From Escherichia coli (lineage in GTDB: Bacteria; Pseudomonadota; Gammaproteobacteria; Enterobacterales; Enterobacteriaceae): a stretch of DNA of 64,000 bases. Made by a program: the position numbers. Below, in pieces: positions 39,001 through 42,000 of the stretch. The stretch lies in the NCBI RefSeq assembly GCF_013315695.1, contig NZ_CP054353.1; one strand, given 5' to 3'. Position 1 is the stretch's first letter. Every line of letters begins with the position of its first letter.

Positions 39001-42000
39001 TTCCAGCAGCGTCAGGATGCTTTGCGCATCTTGCGCGGCGAACAGCGACTGGCGGAAGTTTTTATTCACCAGTTTGCGCGCCAGCTGCGAGAAGACTTTC
39101 ACATGGCTCATCCCTTCGTTAGCACCTAACGTCAGCATGATCACCAGTTCGACTTCGCCCATTTCTGACTGCCAGTCAACCGGTTTCACCAGCCGGGCAA
39201 TGCTGATACTGGAATGACGGATCCACTGAGATTTGGTGTGCGGGATCGCTACGCCAAAACCAACGCCGGTGGTAACAATCTCTTCCCGCTGCCAGACATC
39301 TTCTTCCAGCTCAAACGGATGTTCAGTACGCCCGTTAACGCCGAGGTTACCGCACAGGAACTGGATCGCCTGCTCTTTATTGCTAAAGGCCTGATCAACG
39401 AAGATATTCTCCAGCGCCAGCAGCGGGCGAACGTCTTCTTCCGGCGTAAACGCGGTGAGTAACGCTTCAATCTCCTGCGCGCTGCGGCATTCACATGCCT
39501 GACGCGCCAGTTCCCGACACGCCTCGCTATCCAGTTGACGAAGCTGGCTTTTCACCGCCGGAATGCGCGGGCTACTCATACTCAGCTCGTCCAGGCCCAG
39601 CCCAAGCAGTAGCGGCAGATAACGACTTTCACCGCCCAGTTCACCGCAAATACCTACCCATTTACCCCGCTGATGCGCAGTGGTAACAATCTGCTGCAAC
39701 ATGCGCAGGAACGATGGCGTAATCGGGTTATACAGCGGCGATACGCGCGGGTTATTACGATCGACCGCATACAGATACTGGGTCATATCGTTGGAGCCGA
39801 TACTGAAGAAATCGACCTCATCGCAGAAGTGATCGATGATGTAGCACACCGACGGCACTTCCACCATGATACCCAGCGTAATCGTCTCTGCATGACGCAG
39901 GCCATCGCGCTTAAGCTCAACGATCGCTTTTTGGATCTCGCCCTTCACCCATAAGATCTGATCGAGGCTGTGAACCATCGGGATCATCAACTGGGCGTTG
40001 CCGAAACAGGCAGCACGCAAAATCGCCCGCAGTTGAGTGCGGAACAGGCCAGCAAATTCCGGGTAAATACGTACCGCGCGATAGCCGAGGAACGGGTTCT
40101 CTTCCTGGGGAATATTCAGATAAGGAATGCTTTTATCGCCGCCGATGTCCATCGTGCGGAAGATAATCGGCTTGTCGCCCGCCGCCAGTAGCACCTGCTG
40201 GTAGGCTTCAAATTGCTCCTGCTCGTCCGGCGCGCTGTCGCGATCCATATAGAGCATTTCGGTACGGAACAGCCCGACACCTTCCGCGCCGTTGGCAAAC
40301 GCGCCTGGCGCTTCCAGCGCGGTGCCGATATTCGCCGCAATATCAATACGCTTGTTATCACGGGAATAGGCCAGCTGCGCGGCGGCCTGCGCCTGTTGTT
40401 TTTGGCGTTTATCCGCCAGCGTCTGCGCAACCTGATAATAACCGCTCACCGCGTCATTCGGGTTAATCGCCAGCACGCCGCACTGGGCGTCAAGCACTGC
40501 AGGTTGCCCGGCATAACGGGCAATCGCATCCAGCGGCAGGCCGCTCAGTACCGGGATCGCCGAAGCGCGGGCCAGGATCAGGGTATGCGAGGTGCGCCCG
40601 GTTTTCTCCAGAATCATGCCCGCAAGATTTTTTAAATCGAGGCTCAAAAACTGGCTTGGGGTTAAATCTTCAGCCACCAGAATAGTCGGTTTTTCAAGCA
40701 CCAGATTATTGCGCGGTTTTAGTTCCGGCCAGGTGATATGCAGCAACTGTTCGCTGATATCGCGAATGTCGCTGACCCGCTCGCGCAGATAATCGCTGGC
40801 AGAAGCAGAAAGTTTGGCACAAACCTGCTCCATATTGCTGATGATCGCCGCCCCCAGCCCCTGATGCTGTTCTGCCATCAGGTGACGGATATTGCCTGCA
40901 AATTCATCATCCTGAATCAGCGACAAATGGGCGCTGAGGATAGTTTTGCTTTCGCCGTCACGCTCACGCAATTGCTGGTTCAGTTGCTCGGCAAGCGTTG
41001 CCAGACTGTGCTCCAGCAGGGTGGAATCTTGCGCACTGGCCGGTATTGCCCGATAACTGTCGAGGCTGTCGCTCTGTAACAGGGTCAGCGTACCCACGCC
41101 GACGCCGCTTGCCAGCACATTGCCGTACAGTAAATCAGGATTCAGACGGCTTAATGAACGCGGCAGCGGATGCGCCGTCAGTTCTGCCTGCGTTGGCTGG
41201 ACGCTGTCGCTGTCGATAAAGCGCGCCTGGATGTACTCTTCCAGCACGCGCCGCGCCTGCTCTTCATCGCTGCCGCTAATGTTCAGGCTGCAACTGTCAT
41301 TAAATAGGGTGCCGGTGCCAATCAGCGCCAGCGAGCTTTTCGCATCTGCCTTTGCGTTCTGGCGATGGTTGATGAAGGTGATTTCGCTTTGCCACTGGCT
41401 GCACTGTTCTTTAAGTTCCCACGCCGGACGAGCATGCAGACCGTTAGGCAGAGGACAGAGAAATTGAATCGTTAGCATAACCGCTCCGGGTTAATCAGGA
41501 GATCATCTGAAATCCGTCAGTTGAACAACCGTCTCACGCGTAAGACGTTGAATAAGGGCAGATAAAAGTTACTGCATCTGCAAAATGTCGCGGCAATCGG
41601 CAATCGATGCCGCGCAATGTCCGTGGCGGGTGGCAGGCCCCATCACCACTGTGGGTACGCCAGTGCCGGTTAAATGCATCGCTCCACCGTCCGTGCCGCC
41701 GTTGCTGAACATATCTGCCTGTAACGGCACGCCAATTTCTGCCGCCACGGTTTCAATCCACGCGGTAAGTTTTGGCGGCGCAATCAGCGATTTATCGCTT
41801 AACACCAGCATCGGGCCGTTACCAATCTGACGATGGTTAGCCGCGCCATAATCAAAGTTTTTCGCCCAGCAGGCGGTATCAAGCACAATGGCGACGTCCG
41901 GCGACACCGCGCGGGTGGCAGTTTGCCCGCCGCGTAATCCCACCTCTTCGCTGGAACTTGCCACCAGCCACACTTCCGCAGGCAGTTCGGCGTCGTGCAG

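Follow-up and report, generated by a model that had tools for sequence, protein, structure and literature searches.

The aminopeptidase gene ypdE in the fry operon of the window (the whole 64,000-nucleotide stretch of Escherichia coli DNA analysed here) is interrupted by a nonsense change at codon 324 (Q324*), which is clone-wide and vertically inherited and not private to one strain. Taking the account as a whole, we consider it probable, at roughly 0.8, that this inherited change leaves a non-functional YpdE in an operon that is dispensable for the clone. A single C>T transition at position 41571 converted Gln324 into an ochre stop in the common ancestor of a subclade within a recently diversified clone, and the allele has been passed on vertically since then.

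The ypdE reading frame and its premature stop

The features of the operon and of the ypdE-fryA junction are as follows.

38983..41478, minus strand: fryA, 831 aa, fused HPr, enzyme I and EIIA-fructose; intact
41484..41487, minus strand: GGAG Shine-Dalgarno-like site of fryA, 5 nt before the ATG; read from the sequence and identical in K-12
41503..41505, minus strand: ancestral ypdE stop TGA; the annotated CDS end in K-12 and relatives
41506..41568, minus strand: 21 orphaned codons, LLSALIQRLTRETVVQLTDFR, formerly YpdE residues 325-345; nucleotides the same as in K-12
41569..41571, minus strand: premature ochre stop TAA; C>T at 41571 turns CAA (Gln324) into TAA, from comparison with relatives and K-12
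41569..42540, minus strand: truncated ypdE, M42-family aminopeptidase, 323 codons plus TAA; from translation and NCBIfam NF007421
42540..43625, minus strand: ypdF, 361 aa, M24 aminopeptidase (NF007310, 813 bits); intact
43640..44887, minus strand: fryC, PTS EIIC; intact
44909..45235, minus strand: fryB, PTS EIIB, operon head with fryC; intact

The minus strand of the window was translated from 42540 to 41479, and it gave 323 codons ending in ...CRDILQMQ, then TAA, LLSALIQRLTRETVVQLTDFR and TGA. The reading of the initial annotation, in which the ypdE frame ends at the TAA and 21 sense codons lead on to a TGA, was thereby confirmed. An open run of 21 codons past a stop has a chance of about 0.36 and is not significant alone. 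The decisive evidence for a nonsense change came from ypdE of K-12 MG1655 (b2384), because this gene of 345 codons has CAA at codon 324, and its codons 325-345 and stop are identical throughout to the 66 nt that lie 3' of the TAA in the window. When fifteen related loci were compared base by base, the change was found to be a single coding-strand C>T at 41571, and every fetched relative outside the Q324* subclade has C at this position. The codon CAA is present at 324 in MS 21-1, AF10, AF14, LR-28, AR_0077, E7-1N7, K-12 and nine further contigs.

The protein is 345 aa long in K-12, in Shigella (PDB 1YLO) and in all the fetched relatives outside the subclade, and the crystal structure of the Shigella orthologue also ends in ...LTDFR. 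The length of 345 codons given for K-12 YpdE in the initial annotation agreed with K-12 itself, with 1YLO and with the length of the NCBIfam model. The reference proteins were also checked for an end at ...DILQMQ; none of them ends there, and so the suspected nonsense change relative to reference YpdE stands. K-12 YpdE (b2384, NP_416885.1) and Shigella flexneri SF2450 (1YLO) represent the same gene at the same operon position, fryB-fryC-ypdF-ypdE-fryA, and the window differs from both in having TAA instead of CAA at codon 324 and in the absence of residues 324-345. The window protein matched NF007421, the YpdE equivalog model, with 642.5 bits (cutoff, 412), and the match covered positions 1-323 of the 345, short of end-to-end coverage. 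Pfam PF05343 (Peptidase_M42) is recorded for the 323-aa product. Between K-12 and the window, ypdE shows 39 synonymous differences and 4 amino-acid replacements, the latter within codons 1-323, which indicates that the gene was under purifying selection until Q324* arose.

Inheritance and spread of the Q324* allele

The exact TAA-containing 61-mer was searched in 5,426 complete RefSeq E. coli genomes, with 5,257 matching genomes. The carriers were MSB1_4I, from a rectal swab in Australia, and AF3, from a blood culture in the UK. The initial annotation had called the change strain-specific, and this was upheld as far as rarity in complete genomes is concerned (2 of the 5,257); it is not private to one strain, as the exact 323-aa product was found in 746 public contigs from NCBI, ENA, JGI and Logan. 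In the same sources, 256 contigs have the intact parent allele in its exact form (WP_000366051.1), both figures being contig counts in which one isolate may recur across sources. The 323-aa product occurs in 1336 blocks of the index. That the stop allele is commoner than its intact parent in public data is compatible with neutrality and hitch-hiking, and is no proof of them.

The lesion is already known, since RefSeq flags the gene as a pseudogene in both the complete genomes that carry it: PGAP has annotated the 1038-nt ypdE span as a pseudogene with an 'internal stop' in MSB1_4I (NZ_LR898874.1) and AF3 (NZ_OZ547117.1), and this allele is identical to that of the window. GenBank submissions name the 323-aa product plainly as 'aminopeptidase'. 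The window genome is a third carrier, which differs from MSB1_4I by four SNPs, without the ISEc45 that MSB1_4I has between glk and yfeO, with two tandem tRNA-Val genes versus three in MSB1_4I, and without the 922-bp fryA deletion of AF3. The TAA is therefore carried by three distinct assemblies.

The same comparisons yielded several observations elsewhere in the window. At 46437-46448, between glk and yfeO, the window lacks the 1.4-kb ISEc45 (IS110 family) that is present in MSB1_4I and in loci L013 and L015; all four combinations of presence and absence of ISEc45 and of the fryA deletion were seen, and this pattern implies that the IS inserted here more than once, that it was excised precisely or that recombination took place. 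Codon 403 of ypdA/pyrS (position 36871) is CTC (Leu) in the window and CGC (Arg) in every related contig covering the site; Leu403 is a missense change private to the window, in a pyruvate-sensing histidine kinase gene that adjoins the fry operon. The region 59760-60035 contains two tRNA-Val(TAC) genes in tandem and, after them, tRNA-Lys(TTT), and the third tRNA-Val of MSB1_4I makes this a copy-number difference between close relatives. Of the roughly twenty SNPs that separate the window from MSB1_4I, 13 cluster in about 900 bp (56441-57333), which coordinate transfer from the MSB1_4I annotation places inside the gene of an IS200/IS605-family TnpB (InsQ). Rather than point mutation, such a cluster suggests that IS copies underwent gene conversion or that the two genomes have different IS copies here. 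At 9270-11294, a hypothetical gene located between mlaA and fadL is broken by an IS1A into two fragments, both pseudogenes; this was read by coordinate transfer from MSB1_4I, which is colinear and gapless here, with the nearest SNPs at 2358 and 27019.

The C-terminal segment lost from YpdE

Intact YpdE has been reported to be active and dodecameric, the dodecamer being unpublished data cited in that report (PMC3511314). The M42 TET dodecamers PhTET2, TmPep1050 and YsdC of B. subtilis share with YpdE the fold and the conserved metal-ligand positions. The repaired YpdE was modelled with AlphaFold2 on 115 diverse M42 sequences, which gave a mean pLDDT of 97.5; a single-sequence AlphaFold2 run, with a pLDDT of 37, was discarded in favour of this alignment-based model. 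The model agreed with the crystal structure 1YLO at a TM score of 0.99 and 0.6 Å over 345 residues. The C-terminus in the model consists of a strand (312-315) and two helices (316-332 and 335-341). The stop at 324 removes the C-terminal 22 residues, and it thereby halves the first of these helices and deletes the second.

The lost segment is conserved. Positions 325, 326, 329, 330 and 333 of the family alignment are 93-98% hydrophobic with 99-100% occupancy, a pattern that is the signature of a buried helix face. None of the 114 full-length-like M42 representatives, which were <50% identical to one another, ends before YpdE position 334-335. The solved and sampled members of the family keep their C-terminal helices, with the shortest reaching to about YpdE 334, whereas the window product stops at 323 and the helices that M42 members have past this point are absent from it.

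The 323-aa form keeps H62, D64, D166, E198/E199, D215 and H308 as well as the conserved Asp318. The first six positions are, by homology with proteins such as TmPep1050 (H60, H307), the probable metal ligands and catalytic residues, with His308, the counterpart of His307 in TmPep1050, as the presumed last metal ligand; PDB entries are listed for the TmPep1050 mutants H60A and H307A. Furthermore, the stop lies beyond every invariant or nearly invariant column of the 115-sequence alignment, as none of these columns falls after D318. These features, together with the score of 642 bits against the equivalog model and the listing as an ordinary 'aminopeptidase' in GenBank submissions, would fit a 323-aa YpdE that is still working, perhaps weakened, and that is a length variant and not a pseudogene. 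We consider such a product unlikely, as the stop falls in the middle of helix 316-332 with the loss of five conserved hydrophobic positions, the lost segment is ordered in 1YLO, no sampled homologue is so short at the C-terminus, and PGAP calls the gene a pseudogene. Because conserved helices are cut and none of the 114 homologues is this short, a defect in folding or assembly of the truncated YpdE, and hence loss of function, is likely on the grounds of structure and conservation. In the proposed mechanism, the product would keep the catalytic core and lose half of the presumably buried amphipathic helix 316-332 along with helix 335-341; a misfolded or unstable subunit would then fail to assemble into the M42 dodecamer, and ypdE would be a pseudogene in functional terms.

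Decay of the fry operon in the clone and the ypdE-fryA junction

Over 13 kb, only 1-5 SNPs separate each related contig from the window, so that all of them belong to one recently diversified clone. Of the 25 contigs read from the Q324* subclade, 24 (including loci L001, L012, L013 and L015) have the same frameshifting deletion of 922 bp in fryA, which ends at copies of the 9-bp direct repeat CCAGGCGCG (41222-41230 and 40300-40308). Both copies of this repeat are present in the window, and its fryA is intact and identical to that of MSB1_4I (WP_016243068.1); the window represents an earlier, pre-deletion state of the subclade. An IS1 in ypdA was found in one contig of the subclade read.

The sister group has an intact ypdE with other lesions in the operon. 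A Mu-like prophage with Mor and GemA genes is inserted in fryA near 39416 in about 14 of the 24 contigs (HMP MS 21-1; loci L009, L017 and L022-L025), and it severs the EIIA domain. About 5 of the 24 (L007, L008, L018, L019 and L021) lack one base of a GGGG run in ypdF (43528), and most of these also have W103* (TGG>TAG, 38430) in ypdC, the gene of an AraC-type regulator. The ypdF deletion is not a nanopore artefact, because Illumina-era Broad assemblies show it too. The operon is fully intact in 5 of the 24 sister contigs. Locus L018 was seen to have a further 1-bp deletion in fryA (40015), and L021 a 12-bp in-frame fryA deletion (39073-39084).

The SNPs within the clone in this region (n = 17) comprised 2 synonymous, 12 missense and 3 nonsense changes, and glk and yfeO were affected too. 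Nearly all of them being non-synonymous is a generic pattern of short timescales, in which purifying selection has yet to act. Individual changes outside the operon include W395* (TGG>TGA, equivalent to window position 47807) in the ion-channel gene yfeO of L023, a 1-bp insertion in yfeO of L018 (46668) and two missense changes in glk. In an unrelated common lineage, an IS was found in fryC in 6 of the 25 contigs. The idea that the fry operon decays unusually fast in this clone was down-weighted, as the SNPs in glk are also non-synonymous and the unrelated lineage has its fryC insertions.

These data are read most simply as neutral decay of a dispensable fry operon. The loss of ypdE would have been tolerated because the clone can do without fryBC-ypdFE-fryA, and most descendants lost 922 bp of fryA in a later step. 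Two further M42 paralogues have been described in E. coli (PMC3511314). In the uropathogenic strain UTI89, deletion of ypdE lowered fitness in the mouse bladder, with a competitive index of 0.30 (PMC8767336); the dispensability of ypdE thus does not extend to all backgrounds.

The same lesions could also be read as convergent knock-outs of the fry operon that were positively selected in a human-associated clone, bloodstream isolates included, with Q324* as one of them. At least three independent recurrent lesions among contigs that are 1-5 SNPs per 13 kb apart would fit such selection, namely Q324* with the subsequent loss of 922 bp from fryA, the insertion of the Mu-like prophage into that gene, and the combination of a frameshifted ypdF with a stop in ypdC; so would the small number of fully intact sister operons. 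However, the non-synonymous excess is found everywhere, in glk and yfeO too, and is not specific to fry, and the fryC insertions of the unrelated lineage show that the operon is hit elsewhere as well. The sample was small, phylogenetically non-independent and taken from the longest contigs only. Selection for loss is accordingly rather improbable as the explanation, and neutral decay of a dispensable operon is preferred.

The position of the stop relative to fryA was the remaining aspect. The ypdF stop and the ypdE start overlap by one base. The ATG of fryA is at 41478, which gives an untranslated gap of 24 nt from the TGA, as in K-12 and relatives, and of 90 nt from the TAA; the lengthening of this gap from 24 to 90 nt and the GGAG site before fryA had both been placed correctly in the initial annotation. 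The RNA of the junction was folded and compared with shuffled sequence, and it showed no extra stability (MFE, -30.1 kcal/mol; mean of the shuffles, -31.8; z = +0.47). In this fold the part of ypdE that is no longer translated does not sequester the Shine-Dalgarno of fryA; the sole pairing that touches this site uses codons 5' of the TAA, and both alleles translate these. A CTCC/GGAG coupling hairpin, which had been expected from the sequence, was absent from the minimum-free-energy and centroid structures. No promoter-like or terminator-like sites were found in a scan of 41300-41800. A weakened translational coupling from ypdE to fryA, as raised earlier, may be offered as speculation, to which the predicted RNA structure gives no support.

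The stronger version of this idea is that the main effect of the allele is polar, in that a ypdE stop 66 nt early lowers fryA expression through loss of coupling or Rho-dependent termination. The longer distance from stop to start would favour it, and a fryA that was already poorly expressed would fit its later loss in descendants. We give this explanation little credence, as fryA is preceded by a GGAG site of its own (spacer, 5 nt), the junction is no more structured than shuffled RNA and leaves that site unpaired with the new untranslated tail, the scanned region lacks terminator-like and promoter-like sites, and ninety nt of mixed composition (22 C, 20 G) are marginal for Rho loading. Scarcely credible is an error of sequencing or assembly, or an ochre suppressor that reads through the TAA to full-length YpdE: the difference is one base and the base after TAA is C, UAA-C not being the strongest termination context, but the error is effectively refuted because three non-identical assemblies from different sources and the 746 contigs give the identical truncated product, and among the six tRNAs of the 64-kb window, all with standard anticodons, there is no ochre-suppressor tRNA, the sole tRNA-Lys having the wild-type TTT anticodon.

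The inherited nonsense change with a probably non-functional YpdE is an ordinary pseudogene, which brings no new mechanism or family and has little reach beyond strain-level genomics. Within that reach, Q324* cleanly marks, by a single base, one subclade of an E. coli clone found in isolates from human gut and blood, and the state of the window, with the stop present and fryA intact, helps to order the steps in the decay of a cryptic PTS/aminopeptidase operon. If the loss were selected after all, it would mean that losing the operon benefits the clone, despite ypdE aiding bladder colonisation by UTI89. The Q324* carriers could act as natural knock-outs in which the UTI89 bladder result may be tested.
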